Positions 5,453-55,749 of a stretch of DNA of 64,000 nucleotides are shown in pieces; position 1 is the stretch's first letter, and each line of letters opens with the position of its first letter. Position numbers and translations under genes: made by a program. The notes under the pieces are model-generated. The model saw only the letters and a list, made by a program, of their open reading frames with translations. It was not told where the DNA came from and made no database searches. This stretch comes from an uncultured Acidobacteriota bacterium (GTDB taxonomy: Bacteria; Acidobacteriota; Thermoanaerobaculia; Multivoradales; UBA5704): assembly GCA_963792575.1 (NCBI GenBank), contig CAWBWZ010000010.1, positions 136,359-200,358 on the forward strand, in the 5' to 3' direction.

Positions 5453-5546
<94 letters not shown>

Positions 5547-5652: not shown

Positions 5653-7016
5653 ATGTTGAAGGCCATCAATCCCGCCACCGGCGAGACCCTCCGCGAAGTT
5701 CCCGAGCACGACGAGCAAGAGGTCAACGAGCGGCTGGAGGCTGCCGAGGTGGCCTTCAAGTCCTGGCGGCGCTTCGATTTCGAGGAGCGGGCCCGGCATC
5801 TGACCAGCGTCGCCGACCTGCTGCGCGAGAACATGGCGGACTTCGCCCGGCTGATGACGGAGGAGATGGGCAAGACCCTCGCCTCCGCCGAGTCCGAGGT
5901 CGACAAGTGCGCCTGGGTCTGCGATTTCTACGCCGAGAACGCCGAGCGCTTCCTCGCCAATGAGCCGGTGGCGACCGACGCCGCAAAGAGCTTCATCCGC
6001 TACGAGCCGCTCGGACCGGTGCTCGCCATCATGCCGTGGAACTTCCCGTTCTGGCAGTTCTTCCGCTTCGCGGCGCCGGCGCTGATGGCAGGCAACGTGG
6101 CGCTGCTGAAGCACGCGGCGAACGTCCCCGGCTCGGCTCTCGCCATCGAGGCGGTGTTCCGCGAGGCGGGCCTGCCGGACGGCGTGGTGACCACCCTCCT
6201 GGTCTCCTCGGCGCGGGTCAAGTACCTGATCAGCAACCCCGTGGTGCGGGCGGTGACTCTCACCGGCAGCGACCGCGCCGGCATGGAGGTGGCCGCGGAG
6301 GCGGGGCGGTGCCTGAAGAAGGCGGTCCTCGAGCTGGGCGGCTCCGACCCGTTCATCGTGCTCGTCCGACGTCGATCCCGCCGAGGCGGGCCGGCAGGCG
6401 GCGAAGGCGCGCACGATCAACAACGGTCAGAGCTGTATCGCCGCCAAGCGCTTCATCGTCATCGACGACATCGCCGACCGCTTCGAGGAGGAGTTCGTCC
6501 GCGCCGTGGAAGGGCTCAAGGTGGGCGATCCCATGGAGCGGAGCACGGACGTCGGCCCGATGGCGCGCGAGGATCTGCTCGACTCCCTCGACGATCAGGT
6601 GAAGCGCTCGGTCGCGGCCGGGGCCCAGCTGCGAACCGGCGGCAAGCGGCTGGAAGGGAACGGGCTGGTACTACGCGCCGACGGTGCTGACCGGCGTCCA
6701 GCCCGGCATGGCCGCCTTCGACGAGGAGACCTTCGGGCCGGTGGCGGCGGTGATCCGGGCGCGCGACGCCGCGGAGGCGATCGAGCTGGCGAACCGCTCG
6801 CGGTTCGGCCTCGGCGCCAGCATCTGGACCGCCGACGCCGCCCGCGGCGAGGATCTGGCGGCCGAGATCGAGGCCGGCTGCGTGTTCGTGAACGGCACCG
6901 TCAAGTCCGACCCCCGCCTCCCCTTCGGCGGCGTCAAGAGCTCCGGCTACGGCCGCGAGCTCTCCGAGGTGGGGATCCGCGAGTTCGTGAACATCAAGAC
7001 AGTCTGGATCAAATAA
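5653..7016 (+). CDS. NAD(P)-dependent aldehyde dehydrogenase (succinate-semialdehyde dehydrogenase-like); at least three 1-bp indel frameshifts near ~6365, ~6420 and ~6664
   Basis: ORFs 5638..6690, 6506..7030 and 6684..7016 together read as one ALDH: [11 protein letters not shown]...LELGGSDPF | ...[11 protein letters not shown]...GKRLEGNG | [15 protein letters not shown]...[22 protein letters not shown] precedes ATG 5653. Confidence 0.75.
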
Positions 7017-7036
7017 ACCGGATCAAGTAGGCCGGA

Positions 7037-7951
7037 TCAAGTAGGCAGCCGGATCGTCATCACCGGACAGGGGGCGTGCTCGACGGCCCGTTCGGCGGTG
7101 CTGCCCATCAGCAGATGGCGCAGGCCGGAGAGCCCGCGGGTGCCCATGGCGATCAGGTCGGCGCCGCGCTTCTCGGCCTCCTCGGCGATGACGTGCGCCG
7201 GGTCCCCCTCGCGGGCGACCGTCTCCACCGTCAGCCCTTCCCGCTGCAGCGCCTGCGCGGCCTCATAGAGCCGCCGCTCGGCCTCCAGGCCCGTGTCCTC
7301 GAGATAGCGGAGAGAGGTCGGGATCACCCCATAGGCGGTGTACTCGATCGGCAGGTTGAAGGCGTGCAGCAGGATGAGCCGGGCGTCCTGCTCCAGCGGC
7401 GCCAGCAGCCGGTGGGCGGTGGCGATGGCGAGCTCGGCGGCCGGCGAGAAATCGGTGGGCACCAGGATGGTGCGGATCACGCGGTGCTTGCCGAAGTCGC
7501 CCGGATGGACCGTCAGCACCGGACAGTGGGCGTCGTGGACCACCCGCTGAGCGGTGCTCCCCAGCAGCAGATGGCGCAGGCTGGTCAGCCCGCGCGTGCC
7601 GAGGACGATCGCCAGCGGCGAGATCGCATCGGCGCGGTCGAGGATCACCTGTGAAGGCGTGCCGGCCCGCAGGAAGGTCGTGACCTCGCCCCCCCTGCCG
7701 CCCAACGCCGCGGCGGCTTCCGCCAGCCGGGCCTCGGCCGCCTGGGTCACCTCTTCCTGGAAGTTCTCCGCGGAGGGAACGTAGCCCGGAATGGAAGGGG
7801 GTATGGTGACGGCGTGGACCAGCTCGACGCTCCCACCCTGCTGGCGCGCGAGCTCGACAGCCCAGTCGAGCGCGGCGGAGGCGGTGGCCGAGAAGTCGGT
7901 CGCCGCCAGGATCATGGGTTTGCTGCGGGTCACTGGTTCCATGGGTTCCAT
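7037..7951 (-). CDS. tandem universal stress protein (UspA) domain protein
   Basis: Two Usp domains: ILAATDFSATASAALDWAVELA...LGTRGLTSLRHLLLGSTAQRVVHDAHCPVLTV and ILVPTDFSPAAELA...MGTRGLSGLRHLLMGSTAERAVEHAPCPVMTI. GGGAGGGG RBS precedes ATG 7951. Confidence 0.8.
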   Translation of the reverse strand: MEPMEPVTRSKPMILAATDFSATASAALDWAVELARQQGGSVELVHAVTIPPSIPGYVPSAENFQEEVTQAAEARLAEAAAALGGRGGEVTTFLRAGTPSQVILDRADAISPLAIVLGTRGLTSLRHLLLGSTAQRVVHDAHCPVLTVHPGDFGKHRVIRTILVPTDFSPAAELAIATAHRLLAPLEQDARLILLHAFNLPIEYTAYGVIPTSLRYLEDTGLEAERRLYEAAQALQREGLTVETVAREGDPAHVIAEEAEKRGADLIAMGTRGLSGLRHLLMGSTAERAVEHAPCPVMTIRLPT

Positions 7952-16040: not shown

Positions 16041-16288
16041 GAGCGTTCCGGTCGTGGAGGGAGTTTATCCCAGGCCTGAGGGTGGAGGACGGCAAAGCCG
16101 CGACATGTCAGGACATGCCCTTTGTTGCGCCTCTTGACAACACGGCCGGAATTTGGCTATCTTGGGTCTCGGCAGGCATGCGCGGGGGAAACTTCTGGTC
16201 GCTCTGGTAGCGGCAGCCCCTTTGGGGGTGGGATCCTGAAGCCCGGGGCCTGCTTATTCTTCTCCCTCTAGAATTTCGCGTACCCAGC

Positions 16289-28745: not shown

Positions 28746-29100
28746 GGGGGTGTACCGGTTTCGACGGGGAACAAAGCGGAGCAGTGGGCGGCGTGTCGAG
28801 CTTCCGCTCGTAACACTGGAAAAATAACTGCGAACGATAACTTCGCCCTCGCGGCCTAAAAAGGGCTCGTGACGTTCCGATGGTGGGCCTTGATTCGCGG
28901 CGCCCACCGGAACGACGCTAAAGCGGATCAATGGGTGCGGCGGCCTTGTGACGCATCCTGATATAAAGCAAGGCTGGCTACCGTGCCAGGTTGGCCTTCT
29001 TCCAGAGCACGGTGGCGAGACTTAGAATAGAGGGATACACACGTAGATGCTCCTGATACGCGTTTCTCGGACGTGGGTTCGACTCCCACCACCTCCACCA
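28746..29100 (+). ncRNA. ssrA: tmRNA (SsrA), tag peptide (A)ANDNFALAA
   Basis: 5' GGGGGTGTACCGGTTTCGACGGGG pairs with 3' ...GGACGTGGGTTCGACTCCCACCACCTCCACCA. The internal tag reading frame GCG AAC GAT AAC TTC GCC CTC GCG GCC TAA is present. Confidence 0.85.
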
Positions 29101-44653: not shown

Positions 44654-44743
44654 TGGCGGAGAGGGTGGGATTCGAACCCACGGACCGGTTGCCCGGTCAA
44701 CGGTTTTCGAGACCGCCCCATTCGACCGCTCTGGCACCTCTCC
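44654..44743 (-). tRNA. tRNA-Ser (anticodon CGA)
   Basis: The reverse complement is GGAGAGGTGCCAGAGCGG...GGCGGT-CTCGAAA-ACCGT...GGTTCGAATCCCACCCTCTCCGCCA, with a long variable arm. Confidence 0.85.
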
Positions 44744-44767
44744 GGTTGTCTTATTCGTTTGAATCGA

Positions 44768-44857
44768 TGGCGGAGAGAGTGGGATTCGAACCCACGGTAG
44801 AGTTTCCCCTACACACGCTTTCCAAGCGTGCTCCTTAAGCCACTCGGACATCTCTCC
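44768..44857 (-). tRNA. tRNA-Ser (anticodon GGA)
   Basis: The reverse complement is GGAGAGATGTCCGAGTGG...CACGC-TTGGAAA-GCGTG...GGTTCGAATCCCACTCTCTCCGCCA. Confidence 0.85.
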
Positions 44858-46497: not shown

Positions 46498-46626
46498 GCA
46501 GTGGCCCACGAAGGGTTCGGGTCCTGTGCATCGGCCACTACCGAACCTCGTCAGGCCCGGAAGGGAGCAGCGATAAGGTATGCGGTCGAGTGCCGCAGCT
46601 TCACCGGAACCCTTCGTAGACCACTC
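46498..46626 (+). ncRNA. ffs: SRP RNA (4.5S RNA, ffs), immediately upstream of dnaX as in B. subtilis scr
   Basis: Conserved domain-IV motif GTCAGGCCCGGAAGGGAGCAGC (consensus GUCAGGUCCGGAAGGAAGCAGC). 5' CGAAGGGTTC pairs with 3' GAACCCTTCG to close the long hairpin, and an outer AGTGG/CCACT pairing extends it. Confidence 0.65.
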
Positions 46627-51502: not shown

Positions 51503-52507
51503 TTGGGAATTGAGAACCTTCTTCGCCGGTGGGAGATCTTCGCCCACTTCACGGACGAGCAGCTTGCCCAGCTCGCCCAGTGCGCCACGCGCAACCGTTT
51601 CCCGGCCGGCGCCATGATCGTCAAGGAGGGGGAGGAGACGCAGGACGCCTACCTCATCGAGAGCGGCGGCGTGCGCATCCAGCGCAAGACCCCCTACGGC
51701 CACTTCAGCCTCGCGGCCCTGGAAGCGGGCACCCTGTTCGGCGAGACCTCCTTCGTCGACCGCGTGCCCCGTTCGGGGGACGCGGTGACGACGATGGAGA
51801 CAGAGCTGATCGGGCTCAATCCGATGGCGCTCTCGACCCTCATGGAGCGCGACCCGCGCTTCAAGCTGGCCCTCTACTGGGCGTTCTGGAAGAGCCTGTC
51901 GGCCAAGCTCCGGCAGACCAACGCCAACCTCACCCAGTTCTTCTCGGAGACCGGCAAGCCCCCCGACGCCGAGCCCGCCTCCGGCGACGAGCGGACGGCC
52001 GAGTTCCGCGTCGACCTCGCCTCCAAGCGCAAGCTGTTCCAGGAGCAGAAGCTCTCCAGCATGGAGATCAACTTCCTCTCCTCCCTCTCGAAGGAGCGGA
52101 AGTACGGTCCCCTTCAGGTGATCTTCCGCGAGGGGGAGATGGGCAACGAGATGTACGTGGTGCTCGAGGGGCGGGTGATGATCAGCAAGTTCATCCCCGG
52201 CGCCGGCGAGGAGGCTCTCGCCTTCCTCGAGCGCGGCGGCTACTTCGGCGAGATGGCGCTGATCGACAACGCGGCCCGCTCGGCCGACGCCAAGGCCCAC
52301 GAGGGGGGCGCCGTGGTGCTGGTGATCTCCCGCGAGGTGCTCGAGGGGATCCTCGACATCAACAAGCTGTCGTCGATCCGGCTGCTGACCATCCTCTGCA
52401 ACCTGGTGGCGAGCCGCCTGCGCGAGCTGGACGAGAAGATCATCGGCTGGTTCATCATCGCCGGCGGCTCGGGGATCTCCTGGCCGGTGCCGCCGCCGAT
52501 GGCCTAG
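51503..52507 (+). CDS. tandem cyclic-nucleotide-binding (cNMP) domain protein
   Basis: Two CAP-family cNMP folds, each with the GE..L.....R.A signature (FGETSFVDRVPRSGDAVT and FGEMALIDNAARSADAKA). Confidence 0.65.
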   Translation: MGIENLLRRWEIFAHFTDEQLAQLAQCATRNRFPAGAMIVKEGEETQDAYLIESGGVRIQRKTPYGHFSLAALEAGTLFGETSFVDRVPRSGDAVTTMETELIGLNPMALSTLMERDPRFKLALYWAFWKSLSAKLRQTNANLTQFFSETGKPPDAEPASGDERTAEFRVDLASKRKLFQEQKLSSMEINFLSSLSKERKYGPLQVIFREGEMGNEMYVVLEGRVMISKFIPGAGEEALAFLERGGYFGEMALIDNAARSADAKAHEGGAVVLVISREVLEGILDINKLSSIRLLTILCNLVASRLRELDEKIIGWFIIAGGSGISWPVPPPMA

Positions 52508-53573
52508 CCGGCCCGGTCAATCCCGAAGCTTCCAGCGCTCCCAGCACCTTCCCCACCAGCGACGACAGCGGCAGTTTGGCGCGCCCGGCTTCGTCGAAGA
52601 AGCCGGCGGCCATCCCCTCGCGCACTTCCCCACCCCAGGCGAGCTCCGCGCGGTGGACGTCGATCTCCAGATCGCGGTAGGTGATGCCGTGCCGCGCCCC
52701 GGCGATCCGCGGGCCCACGGTCCAGCGGCCGCCGTAGAGCTCGGCCAGGGCGGACTCAGGATCCCCGGGCTCGGGCACGCCGTTCCGCTCGCGGGTGGTC
52801 CATGGGAGCTCCCAGGTGCCGGCGAGGAGGGTGCTGTCCTCGGGGCGGCGGAAGAGGAGCACGCCGGACCCCTCCTCGACCACCGCCACCAGGAGCCGGT
52901 GCCGCTCCCCTTCGCGCTTCACCTTCGGGATCGGATACCGCTCGGGATCCCCCTCGCGCGCCGCCCGGCAGCCGGGGCGCAGGGGACAGAGCAGGCACTT
53001 GGGACGGCGCGGCGAGCAGAGGGTCGCCCCGAGCTCCATCAGGGCCTGGTTGCTGTCGCCGGGGCGGGCCGGATCGAGCAGCTCGGCCGCGGCGGCGAGG
53101 AGCTGGCGGCGCGCGCCGCTCGCTCGCGGGTCCTCGTCCAGGGCGAGACAGCGCGAGAGGACCCGCTCGACGTTGCCGTCCATCACCGGCGCGGCGACCC
53201 CGAAGGCGATGCTCGCCACCGCCGCCGCCGTGTAGGCGCCGATGCCCGGGAGCGCCAGCAACCCCTCGACGGTCGACGGGAACGCCTCCATCCCGGCGAT
53301 CTGGCGGGCGGCCGCGTGGAGCTGGCGCGCCCGCCGGTAGTAGCCGAGCCCGGACCAGAGGGTCAGCACTTCCTCGACCTCGGCCCGCGCCAGATCTCCC
53401 ACGCTGGGAAATCTTTCCAGGAACCGCTTGTAAAAAGGGAGTACTGTCTCTACCCGGGTCTGCTGAAGCATGACCTCGGAGAGCCAGATCTTGTAGGGAT
53501 CGCTCGTTCGCCGCCAGGGGAGGTCCCGGCGGTGCTGGTCGAACCAGGTCAGGAGGTCTTCGGCGCGCCGCAT
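52455..53573 (-). CDS. mutY: A/G-specific adenine DNA glycosylase MutY
   Basis: HhH-GPD with LPGIGAYTAAAVASIAFG, the 4Fe-4S cluster CxxxxxxCxxCxxxxxC (CSPRRPKCLLCPLRPGC) and a NUDIX-like C-terminal domain. Confidence 0.8.
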   Translation of the reverse strand: MRRAEDLLTWFDQHRRDLPWRRTSDPYKIWLSEVMLQQTRVETVLPFYKRFLERFPSVGDLARAEVEEVLTLWSGLGYYRRARQLHAAARQIAGMEAFPSTVEGLLALPGIGAYTAAAVASIAFGVAAPVMDGNVERVLSRCLALDEDPRASGARRQLLAAAAELLDPARPGDSNQALMELGATLCSPRRPKCLLCPLRPGCRAAREGDPERYPIPKVKREGERHRLLVAVVEEGSGVLLFRRPEDSTLLAGTWELPWTTRERNGVPEPGDPESALAELYGGRWTVGPRIAGARHGITYRDLEIDVHRAELAWGGEVREGMAAGFFDEAGRAKLPLSSLVGKVLGALEASGLTGPARPSAAAPARRSPSRRR

Positions 53574-53621
53574 CGCGTCATTCTAGACATGTACAACAGC
53601 CAATTTGGCAGACCAGGCGCC

Positions 53622-53655
53622 GAAAAAGAAAAAGCTCCCAGCTTTCGCTGGGAGC
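53622..53655 (-). terminator. strong intrinsic terminator on the minus strand, just upstream of the mutY start with no annotated gene feeding it
   Basis: Minus strand reads GCTCCCAGC-GAAAG-CTGGGAGC-TTTTTCTTTTT. Confidence 0.5.
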
Positions 53656-54180
53656 CCCCTCCTTCCCGAGGGAAGGAGGAAGTAGGGGGGGAGGCCCCAT
53701 CTCTCCGGGTTGGCTATTGTGGCTGTACCCCTGTATTTAGGGGATTATGGTTGGAGTCAAAGAGGTTGAGACCACTGAGGATCTCGTAAACAGGTAGGGT
53801 AGGTTAGGTTGGTCTGGAACTCTCCCCCTCGTCATTTCCTGTCTCTTATTGTCTGCAACAGTCGTGCCCGGCTTGGCATTCCGCTCCGGGACGGCCACTT
53901 GCTTCCTCAAGAACGTTGGGAGAGGCCGGTTCCCCTCACCCCTCTGCAGCCTAAAAACTCCCCATAAAAAGAGAGGCCCCCTGGCGCTTGGCCGGAGGGC
54001 TTAAGGGGGGAGGTTCCTGTTTCGGGTTGGGTTGGGTGGCTCTACCCCTGATCAGGGGATCAAGGTGGGGCTTTTTGAGGATGAGATCGCGTTAGGATCT
54101 CTAAAAGGATGGGATATAGGTTGGCTGGATGAAACGTCCCCCTCGGTTCCGACTAATTTGTACCCTGCTTTGTCTGCAAG
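53650..54180. repeat. two diverged (~65-70 percent) direct copies of a ~170-bp non-coding element (53660-53840 and 54000-54180) in a 780-bp lower-GC intergenic region
   Basis: Conserved blocks: TAGGGGGGGAGG; CGGGTTGG; GGCT(G/C)TACCCCTG(T)AT...AGGGGAT; AGG(A)T(A)GGG(A)TAGGTTGG(T)CTGGA; CTCCCCCTCG; TTGTCTGCAA. Copy 1 carries a stop where copy 2 has an ORF, so conservation is at the DNA/RNA level. Confidence 0.45.
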
Positions 54181-54352
54181 CCATATGCCAGAGAGAGCCC
54201 GATGCCCGGGAGCCCATGAAATACGCTTTTAAGCGAAGCTCCCCCTGAATGCCGGGCCGGGACCCTCGGCCAATCCTTCTCATTCGTACAAATGCATTCC
54301 TCCGAGTTAGGCATTTCTACATAGGGTCGTCCGCTCCAAGAGGAGATGGGAG

Positions 54353-54847
54353 ATGTCAGAGTTTCGGGAAGTCCGGACTGTCGGCTGGAAGGAGCACCTC
54401 GATCTTCCCGAGCTGGGGATCGTCCGCATGAAGGCCAAGGTGGACACCGGGGCCCGCACCTCGACGCTGCACGTCGATTCCATCCGGCTGCTGGAGGTGC
54501 TCGCGGACGGCTCCGAGCGGGTGGAGCTCGACTTTCGTCCCGACCGCCGCCGGCCGGACTGGCGGGTCCAGGCTGAGGCGCGGGTGCTGCGGCGGATGCG
54601 TGTCGTCGACTCGGGCGGACACCCCGAGGTGCGGCCGGTGATCGAGACGGAGATGGTGCTCGGGCCGGTGCGCAAGAAGATCCTGCTCACGCTGACCAAC
54701 CGCTCCGGCATGCTGTTTCGTATGATCCTCGGCCGGAAGGCCCTGGAGGGGGACTTCCGGGTGGACGTCGCCGGCAAGTACCTGCTTCGCGAATGGCACC
54801 CCCGGAGGTCGCGCAGGACGCACGGGCGAGAGGCGGAGAACCGATGA
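54353..54847 (+). CDS. RimK-associated retropepsin-like aspartic protease (DUF785/ATP-dependent zinc protease family)
   Basis: KAKVDTGARTSTLHV carries the D-T/S-G aspartyl-protease motif. Its position immediately upstream of rimK is typical. Confidence 0.6.
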   Translation: MSEFREVRTVGWKEHLDLPELGIVRMKAKVDTGARTSTLHVDSIRLLEVLADGSERVELDFRPDRRRPDWRVQAEARVLRRMRVVDSGGHPEVRPVIETEMVLGPVRKKILLTLTNRSGMLFRMILGRKALEGDFRVDVAGKYLLREWHPRRSRRTHGREAENR

Positions 54848-55749
54848 AGATTGCCATCCTGTCGCGCAAGGCGACGCTGTATTCGACCTCGCGCCTGATC
54901 GAGGCCTGCCGCCAGCGGGGCGCCGACGTGACGGTGCTCGACCCGCTGCAGTGCGTGGTCAAGGTGTCGAAGAAGCGGCCGGAAGTCTTCCATGACGGCG
55001 AGCGGGTGACCGGCATGGACGGGGTGGTGCCGCGCATCGGTGCCTCGATCACCTTCTACGGCCTCGCCGTGCTGCGGCAGTTCGAGATGATGGGGGTCTT
55101 CCCCGCCAACGAGAGTCAGGCGATCTCGCGCAGCCGCGACAAGCTGCGCAGCCTGCAGCTCCTCTCGCGCTACGACATCGGCATTCCGCCCACCGCCTTC
55201 GCCCGCCGCCGCGAGGATGTGCGCTCGGCCATCCGCCGGGTCGGCGGCGCGCCGGTCATCCTCAAGCTGCTGGAGGGGACGCAGGGGATGGGCGTCATTC
55301 TGGCGGAGTCGGCCAAATCGGCCGAGTCGGTGCTCGACGCCATGAGCTCGCTGGGGCAGAACATCCTCATCCAGGCCTTCATCGCGGAGGCTCACGGCAC
55401 CGACTACCGCGCCATCGTCATCGGCGGCAAGGTGGTGGCGGCGATGGCGCGCCAGGCCGGCGAGGGGGAGTTCCGCAGCAATCTCCACCGCGGCGGCACC
55501 GCCACCGGCGTCGAGCTCGAGGAGTCCTACGTCCAGACGGCGATCCACGCCGCCGAGGTGCTCGGCCTCAACATCGCCGGGGTGGACATGATCCCTTCCA
55601 AGGACGGCCCGATGGTGCTGGAGGTCAACAGCTCCCCCGGCCTGGAAGGGATCGAAGGGGCGACCGGCGTCGACGTCGCCGGCGCCATGATCGGCTTCGT
55701 CCTCGAGCGCGCGCCGCAAGGGCACCCGCGCACCCAGGGCCGTGGATGA
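54844..55749 (+). CDS. rimK: RimK-family alpha-L-glutamate ligase (ATP-grasp)
   Basis: MKIAILSRKATLYSTSRLIEACRQRG...PVILKLLEGTQGMGV...DYRAIVIGGKVVAAM...GVDMIPSKDGPMVLEVNSSPGLEGIE. Confidence 0.8.
   Translation: MKIAILSRKATLYSTSRLIEACRQRGADVTVLDPLQCVVKVSKKRPEVFHDGERVTGMDGVVPRIGASITFYGLAVLRQFEMMGVFPANESQAISRSRDKLRSLQLLSRYDIGIPPTAFARRREDVRSAIRRVGGAPVILKLLEGTQGMGVILAESAKSAESVLDAMSSLGQNILIQAFIAEAHGTDYRAIVIGGKVVAAMARQAGEGEFRSNLHRGGTATGVELEESYVQTAIHAAEVLGLNIAGVDMIPSKDGPMVLEVNSSPGLEGIEGATGVDVAGAMIGFVLERAPQGHPRTQGRG

Follow-up and report, generated by a model that had tools for sequence, protein, structure and literature searches.

Introduction

Some bacterial small RNAs (sRNAs) are made from promoters of the sigma-54 (RpoN) type, which are silent without an ATP-dependent enhancer-binding activator; the enhancer sites of such sRNA genes are expected about 80-150 bp from the promoter. 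The Qrr RNAs of Vibrio, which are about 100 nt long, Hfq-dependent and dispersed in the genome, have a sigma-54 promoter activated by LuxO and act additively or redundantly by base-pairing through a shared single-stranded seed. qrr1 adjoins luxO, crcZ lies downstream of cbrB, and GlmY, CrcZ and Qrr1 are all encoded beside the activator or its operon. Other modes of action are also known: CrcZ and CrcY titrate Hfq, CsrB and RsmZ titrate CsrA, and in RsaE/RoxS of Firmicutes several unpaired C-rich motifs pair with G-rich ribosome-binding sites. To our knowledge, post-transcriptional regulation is essentially unstudied in Thermoanaerobaculia, a class of abundant soil Acidobacteria that is almost wholly uncultured. 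Here we describe two tandem copies of a non-coding element upstream of the DNA-repair gene mutY in a 64-kb stretch of DNA (hereafter the window) from an uncultured bacterium of this class (contig CAWBWZ010000010.1). The copies are best explained overall as a paralogous pair of sRNA genes with sigma-54 promoters, the products of which would act in trans, a reading that we consider probable.

The closest analogue in organization is Pxr of Myxococcus and Cystobacter, a lineage-restricted sRNA with multiple stem-loops that is made from a sigma-54 promoter (PMC5568312). In Cystobacter, Pxr occurs as tandem paralogs, each with its own sigma-54 promoter, and these paralogs differ more among themselves than orthologues do between species; Pxr adjoins its sigma-54-dependent regulator nla19 and folds as a stack of three hairpins (PMC5568312). 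Second-closest in organization are the RNAs Qrr1-5 of Vibrio, which form a set of four or five paralogous copies, as cited in the same article (PMC5568312). CrcZ of Pseudomonadaceae, a 407-nt RNA, is RpoN-dependent, is activated by CbrB and binds the distal face of Hfq with its six A-rich motifs (PMC4063720). The literature on sigma-54 sRNAs in Acidobacteria and on sRNAs in Thermoanaerobaculia yielded no prior description of the element reported here.

Tandem Copies with Their Own Predicted Promoters and Terminators

The element occupies an intergenic spacer of 779 bp (53574-54352) between two divergently transcribed units, mutY and a plus-strand operon that includes rimK, and the GC content falls from about 0.72-0.78 in the flanking genes to 0.53-0.59 in the spacer. 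Two direct copies are present, at about 53664-53870 (copy A, proximal to mutY) and about 53985-54190 (copy B, distal). Their collinear shared blocks, which include CGGGTTGG..GTGGCT.TACCCCTG and TTGTCTGCAA, are spaced 317-321 nt apart, and the 28-nt block CGGGTTGGNTNNNGTGGCTNTACCCCTG is found exactly twice in the window (expected 0.00). Over the columns of the covariance model described below, the copies are 61% identical. The block TTGTCTGCAA is the reverse complement of a promoter -12 element, TTGCAGACAA, and is promoter DNA rather than RNA.

Each copy is preceded on the minus strand by a sigma-54-type -24/-12 sequence with the consensus GGCAY-N5-TTGCA, about 12 nt upstream of the predicted start. 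The pattern GGCAYN5TTGCW matches once at each copy and nowhere else in the window (expected number of matches, 0.22). Among 120 homologous copies collected by an nhmmer search with copy A, GGCA[CT]-N5-TTGC recurs at the same offset in 111, where the spacer varies but the GG and GC blocks do not; as the search pattern itself required those letters, the informative part is the rate of 111/120 together with the fixed register. A scan for sigma-70 promoters found none. Judging from these motifs, it is very likely that the copies are transcribed from sigma-54 promoters. The starts were placed 12 nt downstream of the C in the -12 GC, near 53843 for copy A and 54164 for copy B, and the 3' ends were placed by the U-tracts at about 53623-53633 and 53964-53975, respectively.

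A simple terminator scan missed the strong terminator of copy A, and therefore the 3' regions were checked by folding. The two adjacent 3' hairpins of copy A, of which the second is a textbook intrinsic terminator, fold with -40.4 kcal/mol (z = -4.5); at the position of the first of them, orthologues retain a hairpin with a different sequence. The terminator of copy B folds with -17.5 kcal/mol, and its hairpin and U-rich tail are conserved in orthologous distal copies. Across the family, terminator-like ends are found in 87 of 110 copies and in 38 of 43 second copies. Each copy is predicted to give a discrete non-coding transcript with its own terminator, and we are highly confident that the copies are genuine sRNA genes.

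A preliminary description of this region, made by reading the sequence, had called it a lower-GC spacer with two direct, diverged copies carrying internal palindromes and with a strong and a second, weaker terminator on the minus strand, all of which are borne out here; the palindromes in question are CCCCTGATCAGGGG (54045-54058) and CCTCCTTCCC-GA-GGGAAGGAGG (53658-53679). Its estimate of about 170 bp for the repeated unit was too short, since the conserved unit extends over about 210 bp when the promoter is included. Its proposal of tandem homologous minus-strand sRNAs ending at their own terminators gains support from the promoters, from the terminator-like ends, and from the covariation and the class-wide position reported below. 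The promoters, the true 5' boundary and the secondary structure lie beyond that account.

The proximal copies that lack a canonical hairpin and U-tract are those of loci L034, L035, L042-L045, L047, L049, L052, L055, L057, L059, L060, L067, L070 and L079 in the collection described below. Several of these copies, which are from more divergent lineages, have G+C-rich hairpins with no U-runs, and read-through into mutY or another mode of termination is possible in them.

Secondary Structure of the RNA Body

Three helices recur in the family: P1, a 12-bp clamp that closes the domain, in which the 5' strand GGGGGAGGUUCC pairs with the 3' strand GGGGCCUCCCCC; P2, GAGAUC/GAUCUC; and P3, CCCC/GGGG. 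P1 closes a domain of about 125 nt that contains P2, P3 and three single-stranded linkers, and one or two 3' hairpins follow it. RNAalifold mis-paired P1 on the raw MAFFT alignment because of long C-runs, and its P1 was replaced by a hand-defined P1 that was tested by pair counts. In the structure-blind MAFFT alignment 94.3% of the cells are paired, compared with 52-77% in slid controls, double changes are present in 13 of the 22 pairs, and none of 500 shuffles reaches this result. The alignment to the covariance model (150 copies) gives 95.7% against 59-83% in slid controls, with compensatory changes in 18 of 22 pairs and again 0/500 shuffles; as a model alignment leans to the structure to which it was fitted, the MAFFT result is the fairer test.

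The three helices differ in the kind of evidence they offer. In P1, compensatory changes are found in 12 of 12 pairs over the 150 copies. P2 is paired in 98% of the cells of the model alignment with compensatory changes in 5 of 6 pairs, and copies A and B are unlike in the interior of this helix and in its loop. P3 is 100% paired and nearly invariant in the 150 copies, and thus its conservation is strong but covariation is almost absent. U.G wobbles are frequent in P1 (UG:44, UG:33 and UG:24 at three positions). Each would be a C.A mismatch on the plus strand, so that P1 fits a minus-strand transcript only, in agreement with the strand of the promoters and terminators. Folding of single sequences reproduces the helices and the 3' hairpins in copy A (z = -3.15) and gives P1, P2, P3 and the terminator hairpin in copy B.

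Some other structures were considered and rejected. A helix CUCUUUG/CGGAGAG in the minimum free energy fold of copy A is paired in only 54% of the cells family-wide, with no excess of covariation, and is not a family feature. The fold is an open multiloop rather than a 6S-like rod, for which there was no Rfam match either. A G-quadruplex at the plus-strand run GGGTTGGGTTGGGTGG was dismissed, as the run is not conserved in copy A.

Distribution and Evolution

A search with the MutY protein gave 80 loci from species-representative genomes (L001-L080), in which MutY identity ranges from 97% down to 54%; nearly all are soil metagenome-assembled genomes (MAGs) with the label Thermoanaerobaculia or Acidobacteriota. 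From 111 distinct copies a covariance model was made, which has 152 matches in the window and nearly all of the 80 loci, with one to three tandem copies per locus. All 152 lie immediately upstream of mutY, and all are on the mutY strand except in L069; only two are in the window. In 1.18 Mb of related genomic DNA, copies were found nowhere but upstream of mutY. When a DNA pattern of the RNA body that ignores genomic context was run against a metagenome collection, it matched 69 stretches: in 55 of them mutY follows on the same strand, and in 13 the contig is too short to tell, so that 55 of the 56 informative matches are upstream of mutY. The sole match without mutY (L092) has no promoter, no P3 and a GC content of 53%, and was set aside as a chance match. 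The element is thus strictly locus-specific.

The flanking genes are less constant. The divergent neighbour is the Zn_protease/rimK operon in 46 of the 80 loci, and an S49 peptidase gene directly or unrelated genes in the others; the gene downstream of mutY is retained in 60 of 80. The junction between the sRNA genes and mutY, in contrast to these variable flanks on either side, is retained essentially always.

Copies within a locus have a median identity of 0.59, whereas for 143 of 150 copies the nearest relative in another locus stands at the same rank in the array. The duplication or duplications therefore predate the species radiation, and three subfamilies, A (proximal), B and C, have been retained ever since. 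This is the pattern reported for Pxr, whose paralogs likewise diverge more within a genome than between species.

Conservation does not extend to a reading frame. Even the best anchor-defined frame is free of stops in just 30 of 99 copies, and core lengths spread continuously over 121-148 nt without a modulo-3 pattern.

Two arrangements depart from the rule. L069 is the sole locus with divergently arranged copies, at 6304-6480 (+) and 7013-7199 (-); the copy closer to mutY, some 800 nt ahead of that gene, is encoded on the opposite strand, and the array is a rearranged one. L074 and L076, titled as MAGs of Polyangiaceae and Deltaproteobacteria, contain the family in its mutY context at 48.6 and 77.2 bits, respectively; either these MAGs carry the wrong label or the family is not confined to Acidobacteriota.

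Comparison with Described RNA Families

Rfam 15 was scanned with the whole window at gathering thresholds, with the region at E<=10 and with the three-copy array of L043 at E<=1. No family reached its gathering threshold in 53574-54352, the search at E<=10 gave only sub-threshold look-alikes of the terminator, and L043 gave nothing at E<=1. The best match, BjrC68 (RF02353), covers 53623-53691 on the minus strand with 30 bits against a gathering threshold of 39. The likeness consists of two hairpins, the first of them G+C-rich, and a U-tract, which are generic features of terminators; 11 unrelated bases stand in for 24 positions of the model, and the conserved body of the RNA is unmatched. BjrC68 and ctRNA_p42d, another weak match, were rejected because both are below threshold and cover the terminator part only.

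With Pxr the array shares its gene organization, tandem paralogs with their own promoters. It differs in that there is no Rfam match, that no activator is encoded within 8 kb whereas Pxr lies beside a response regulator, that a clamp helix with C-rich linkers takes the place of three hairpins, and that the phylum is another one. With Qrr it has in common the multiplicity of paralogous sRNAs, although the RNAs here are twice as long, their unpaired parts consist of CCNNCC repeats and no Rfam match links them. CrcZ, CrcY and CrcX resemble the array, as predicted here, in their RpoN-dependent promoter, their repeated single-stranded motifs and their occurrence in paralogous copies; their motifs are A-rich, whereas those here are C-rich, and again there is no Rfam match. 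RsaE/RoxS exemplifies the C-rich mode of pairing that we consider likeliest for the linkers here, yet its motifs are CCCC/UCCC rather than CCNNCC, its promoters are not of the sigma-54 type, its fold is unrelated and it gives no Rfam match. The array therefore represents a new family of predicted sRNAs within a known kind, the activator-dependent paralogous sRNAs, and belongs to no described family.

Linkers and Proposed Mode of Action

The three linkers consist of 36.5% C, 31.9% A, 19.5% U and 12.1% G. CC[ACU][ACU]CC motifs occur in them at 3.6 per RNA, compared with 0.8 in shuffles (4.6-fold). The family consensus in the unpaired stretches reads CCanCC, uCCnaCC, CCuc, ccnnCCu and CCaACC, where the CC dinucleotides are conserved and the inner NN is variable.

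A possible enhancer (upstream activating sequence) is provided by a conserved inverted repeat, GTAGAAATG-N17-CATTTGTAC, with equivalents in L001-L044. In 35 loci the distance from this repeat to the GG of the distal promoter, upstream of which it lies, is 130-143 nt (standard deviation 3.0), while that to the start codon of the divergent gene, 20-58 nt, is more variable (standard deviation 7.6). This is a typical position for an enhancer, to which we tentatively assign the repeat. No separate candidate enhancer was found for the proximal promoter. A further short motif, GGAATG(C), is present 9-14 nt upstream of the -24 GG in proximal copies (about 53877-53882, minus strand, in the window), and similar short units are repeated in tandem in L050 (about 7680-7715, CCAGGAATGCGGA x2) and L043 (about 7690-7715, GGCTCAGGAAC x3).

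An outline of the mechanism that we propose is as follows. The two adjacent, co-oriented minus-strand genes would each be transcribed separately from an RpoN -24/-12 promoter, and transcription would stop at the gene's own intrinsic terminator. As sigma-54 promoters are silent without an activator, the RNAs would be made only when an unlinked activator is switched on; the probable binding site of that activator is the inverted repeat, which precedes the distal promoter by about 135 nt. We infer this transcription and its dependence on sigma-54 and an activator from the conserved motifs. The RNAs would then act in trans, with their exposed C-rich linkers pairing with G-rich mRNA sites, including Shine-Dalgarno-like sequences, and the one to three paralogs would supply dosage or divergent target preference, as in Qrr and Pxr. 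We rate the chances that the sRNAs act in trans by base-pairing as about even.

Several points weigh against this model. The existence of the RNAs, their starts and their 3' ends are predictions. The terminator of copy B is weak when taken alone (z = -0.6), and 16 of 63 proximal copies, from divergent lineages, have no canonical terminator. A protein with GAFTGA and Walker-A motifs is missing from the 8 kb around the array in each of the 80 loci, and the whole 64-kb window has none either, unlike the situation of Pxr, Qrr1, GlmY and CrcZ, which sit beside their activator or its operon; neither an RpoN box nor such a protein was found in the window, the 80 loci and the 69 metagenome stretches together, which represent so small a part of each genome that this absence is uninformative. 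The inverted repeat could belong instead to a promoter or operator of the divergent Zn_protease/rimK operon, or serve both sides. When six linker segments were screened for duplex energy against 4,200 background windows, pairing with the 5' regions of mutY and Zn_protease was unremarkable (6.5th-95th percentile). In addition, variation of the inner NN fits recognition by a protein at least as well as a fixed base-pairing seed.

Alternative Explanations

The last of these points leads to the main mechanistic rival, in which the genes, promoters and fold are the same but the CCNNCC repeats in the unstructured linkers serve as a decoy that binds and titrates an RNA-binding protein. The enrichment of the motif, the constancy of CC around a variable NN, the accessibility to be expected of G-depleted linkers and the multiple paralogous copies would all suit a decoy, and CrcZ, which is likewise RpoN-dependent, works via repeated single-stranded motifs (PMC4063720). 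Each RNA carries only three or four motifs, whereas CrcZ has six A-rich stretches, and the best-conserved linker stretches, such as GCCAACC, or CCGGAGAGAUGGGG in subfamily A, are longer than a short protein motif. The number is also small in comparison with the roughly 18-22 GGA motifs of CsrB, and we know of no bacterial global regulator that recognizes CCNNCC. Conservation of blocks such as GCCAACC extends past the bare motif, for which reason base-pairing is favoured over protein titration by a modest margin, and the decoy seems to us doubtful.

Transcription itself, rather than its products, might be what matters if the array is a cis-acting device for mutY: sigma-54 transcription from upstream would raise mutY expression by reading through the terminators or lower it by occluding the promoter of mutY, the RNAs being secondary. 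That the array stays next to mutY and in its orientation in essentially all informative loci, down to a MutY identity of about 54% and in spite of changes on the other flank, would be expected of such a device, as would the short distance from the end of the copy A terminator to the mutY start codon (about 50 nt) and to its -10 box (about 40 nt) and the proximal copies devoid of a canonical terminator. However, the RNA body is under strong structural selection, and a pure transcription-interference device would not need a structured body of which 18 of 22 pairs covary; the proximal terminator of the window is very strong, mutY retains promoter elements of its own, and one promoter and one terminator for every copy are the signature of discrete products. 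A cis-acting device therefore seems quite unlikely. As for those promoter elements, a TAnAAT box stands 6-7 nt before the mutY start codon, downstream of the proximal terminator, in 47 of 78 loci, and from its sequence the box in the window (TAGAAT) is predicted to be mutY's own promoter, giving a leaderless mRNA. Since mutY has its own -10 box, we take the sRNAs for separate transcription units rather than a leader of the riboswitch type. A riboswitch or attenuator leader of mutY was rejected on this ground and on the lack of a supported alternative helix: no anti-terminator pairing was found, the sole extra candidate helix being the one that failed the covariation test. A broader view, that the array is functionally coupled to the antimutator mutY by occlusion or read-through, represents a new class of decoy that titrates a C-motif RNA-binding protein, or both, is prompted by the linkage to mutY, far tighter than that of either neighbouring gene, and by a motif enrichment that is real; we hold it to be rather unlikely.

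Coding for small proteins, or a plus-strand transcript such as a long structured 5' untranslated region of the Zn_protease/rimK operon, might be suspected from open reading frames (ORFs) of 40-66 amino acids that overlap the region on both strands and from the operon being transcribed on the plus strand, away from the spacer. The preliminary description had noted that no reading frame is preserved, which the frame counts and core lengths given above confirm; the promoters and terminators are on the minus strand, a plus-strand transcript would have C.A mismatches in place of the U.G wobbles, and the elements persist where the rimK operon is missing or replaced. This explanation is very improbable. 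Even less can be said for remnants of miniature inverted-repeat transposable elements (MITEs) or other mobile or repetitive DNA, an origin that the preliminary description had left open in view of two direct copies with internal palindromes in a lower-GC spacer. The copies are not interspersed: there are no more of them in the window, none beyond the mutY upstream region in the 1.18 Mb of related DNA, and the one exception among the informative metagenome matches is a chance match. They are old positional orthologues that are about 59% identical within a genome, and the units are bordered by neither terminal inverted repeats nor target-site duplications, so that a mobile origin is hardly credible. 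A pair of paralogous sRNA genes acting in trans thus remains the preferred explanation.

Implications

The family, with about 150 non-identical copies, strong covariation, predicted promoters and terminators and no Rfam counterpart, would be suitable for deposition and for the annotation of metagenomes. As sigma-54 promoters are strictly signal-dependent, the RNAs would mark an environmentally triggered regulon, and metatranscriptome reads could report the signal. The ancient array of one to three copies would also be a natural case of divergence among sRNA paralogs outside Proteobacteria and Myxococcota. In view of the unusually strict linkage to mutY, one may ask whether DNA-repair capacity is tied to a sigma-54 signal; if such coupling were true, sigma-54 transcription would modulate the level of MutY and hence the rate of G:C to T:A mutation. 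This linkage and the CCNNCC repeats are the features most deserving of follow-up.

Features of the Locus

The features of the spacer and its borders are collected in Table 1. The conserved palindrome near mutY resembles, by its sequence, an operator or an unusual -35 region.

Table 1. Positions of the predicted sRNA genes, their parts and the flanking genes in the window.
Feature	Position	Strand	Remarks
mutY	52455-53573	minus	HhH-GPD and NUDIX_4 domains; DNA-repair gene
Candidate mutY -10 box, TAGAAT	53585->53580	minus	6 nt ahead of ATG
Conserved palindrome, GCCAAATTGGC	53599-53609		between proximal terminator and mutY start; precedes TAGAAT box
Predicted sRNA gene A (mutY-proximal), ~220 nt	53623..53843	minus	inferred start to end of U-tract; model match 53666-53853, 156.6 bits
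Sigma-54-type -24/-12 promoter of copy A, GGCACGACTGTTGCA	53854..53868	minus	consensus match
P1 5' strand of copy A, GGGGGAGAGUUCC	53816..53828	minus	pairs with 53687-53698
P2 hairpin of copy A, GAGAUCC-loop-GGUCUC	53768..53785	minus	covariation
P3 hairpin of copy A, CCCCUAAAUACAGGGG	53728..53743	minus	near-invariant stem
P1 3' strand of copy A, GGGGCCUCCCCC	53687..53698	minus	covariation and single-sequence fold
3' stem-loop of copy A, upstream of terminator, CCUCCUUCCC UC GGGAAGGAGG	53658..53679	minus	perfect 10-bp inverted repeat; folds as predicted
Intrinsic terminator of copy A, GCUCCCAGC-GAAA-GCUGGGAGC then U5CU5	53623..53655	minus	stem 53634-53655; tract 53623-53633
Predicted sRNA gene B (distal), ~200 nt	53964..54164	minus	model match 53985-54167, 141.7 bits
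Sigma-54-type -24/-12 promoter of copy B, GGCATATGGCTTGCA	54175..54189	minus	consensus match
P1 5' strand of copy B, GGGGGACGUUUC	54131..54142	minus	pairs with 54006-54017
P2 hairpin of copy B, GAGAUCC-loop-GAUCUC	54083..54101	minus	covariation and fold
P3 hairpin of copy B, CCCCUGAUCAGGGG	54045..54058	minus	conservation and fold
P1 3' strand of copy B, GGAACCUCCCCC	54006..54017	minus	covariation and fold
Terminator of copy B, hairpin GCCCUCCGGC..GCCAGGGGGC then tail CUCUCUUUUUAU	53964..54000	minus	stem 53976-54000; U-rich tail 53964-53975
Candidate enhancer, inverted repeat GTAGAAATG-N17-CATTTGTAC	54286..54320	minus	tentative assignment
Plus-strand operon	from 54353	plus	Zn_protease, rimK, AstE/AspA-type gene, S49 peptidase

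In the plus-strand operon, the last 55 nt of the Zn_protease ORF (54353-54847) are shared with the rimK ORF in its listed extent (54793-55749), the overlap being 54793-54847; either rimK starts at a later codon, or translation of the two genes is coupled.

Elsewhere in the window, the Rfam scan recovered housekeeping RNAs, namely tmRNA, the small SRP RNA and three tRNA genes, at 28746-29100 (+), 46515-46613 (+), 44657-44857 (-) and 5453-5542 (+). It also revealed an orphan structured RNA, the DUF3800-VII motif (RF02967), at 16171-16259 (+), with 78 bits, well over its gathering threshold.

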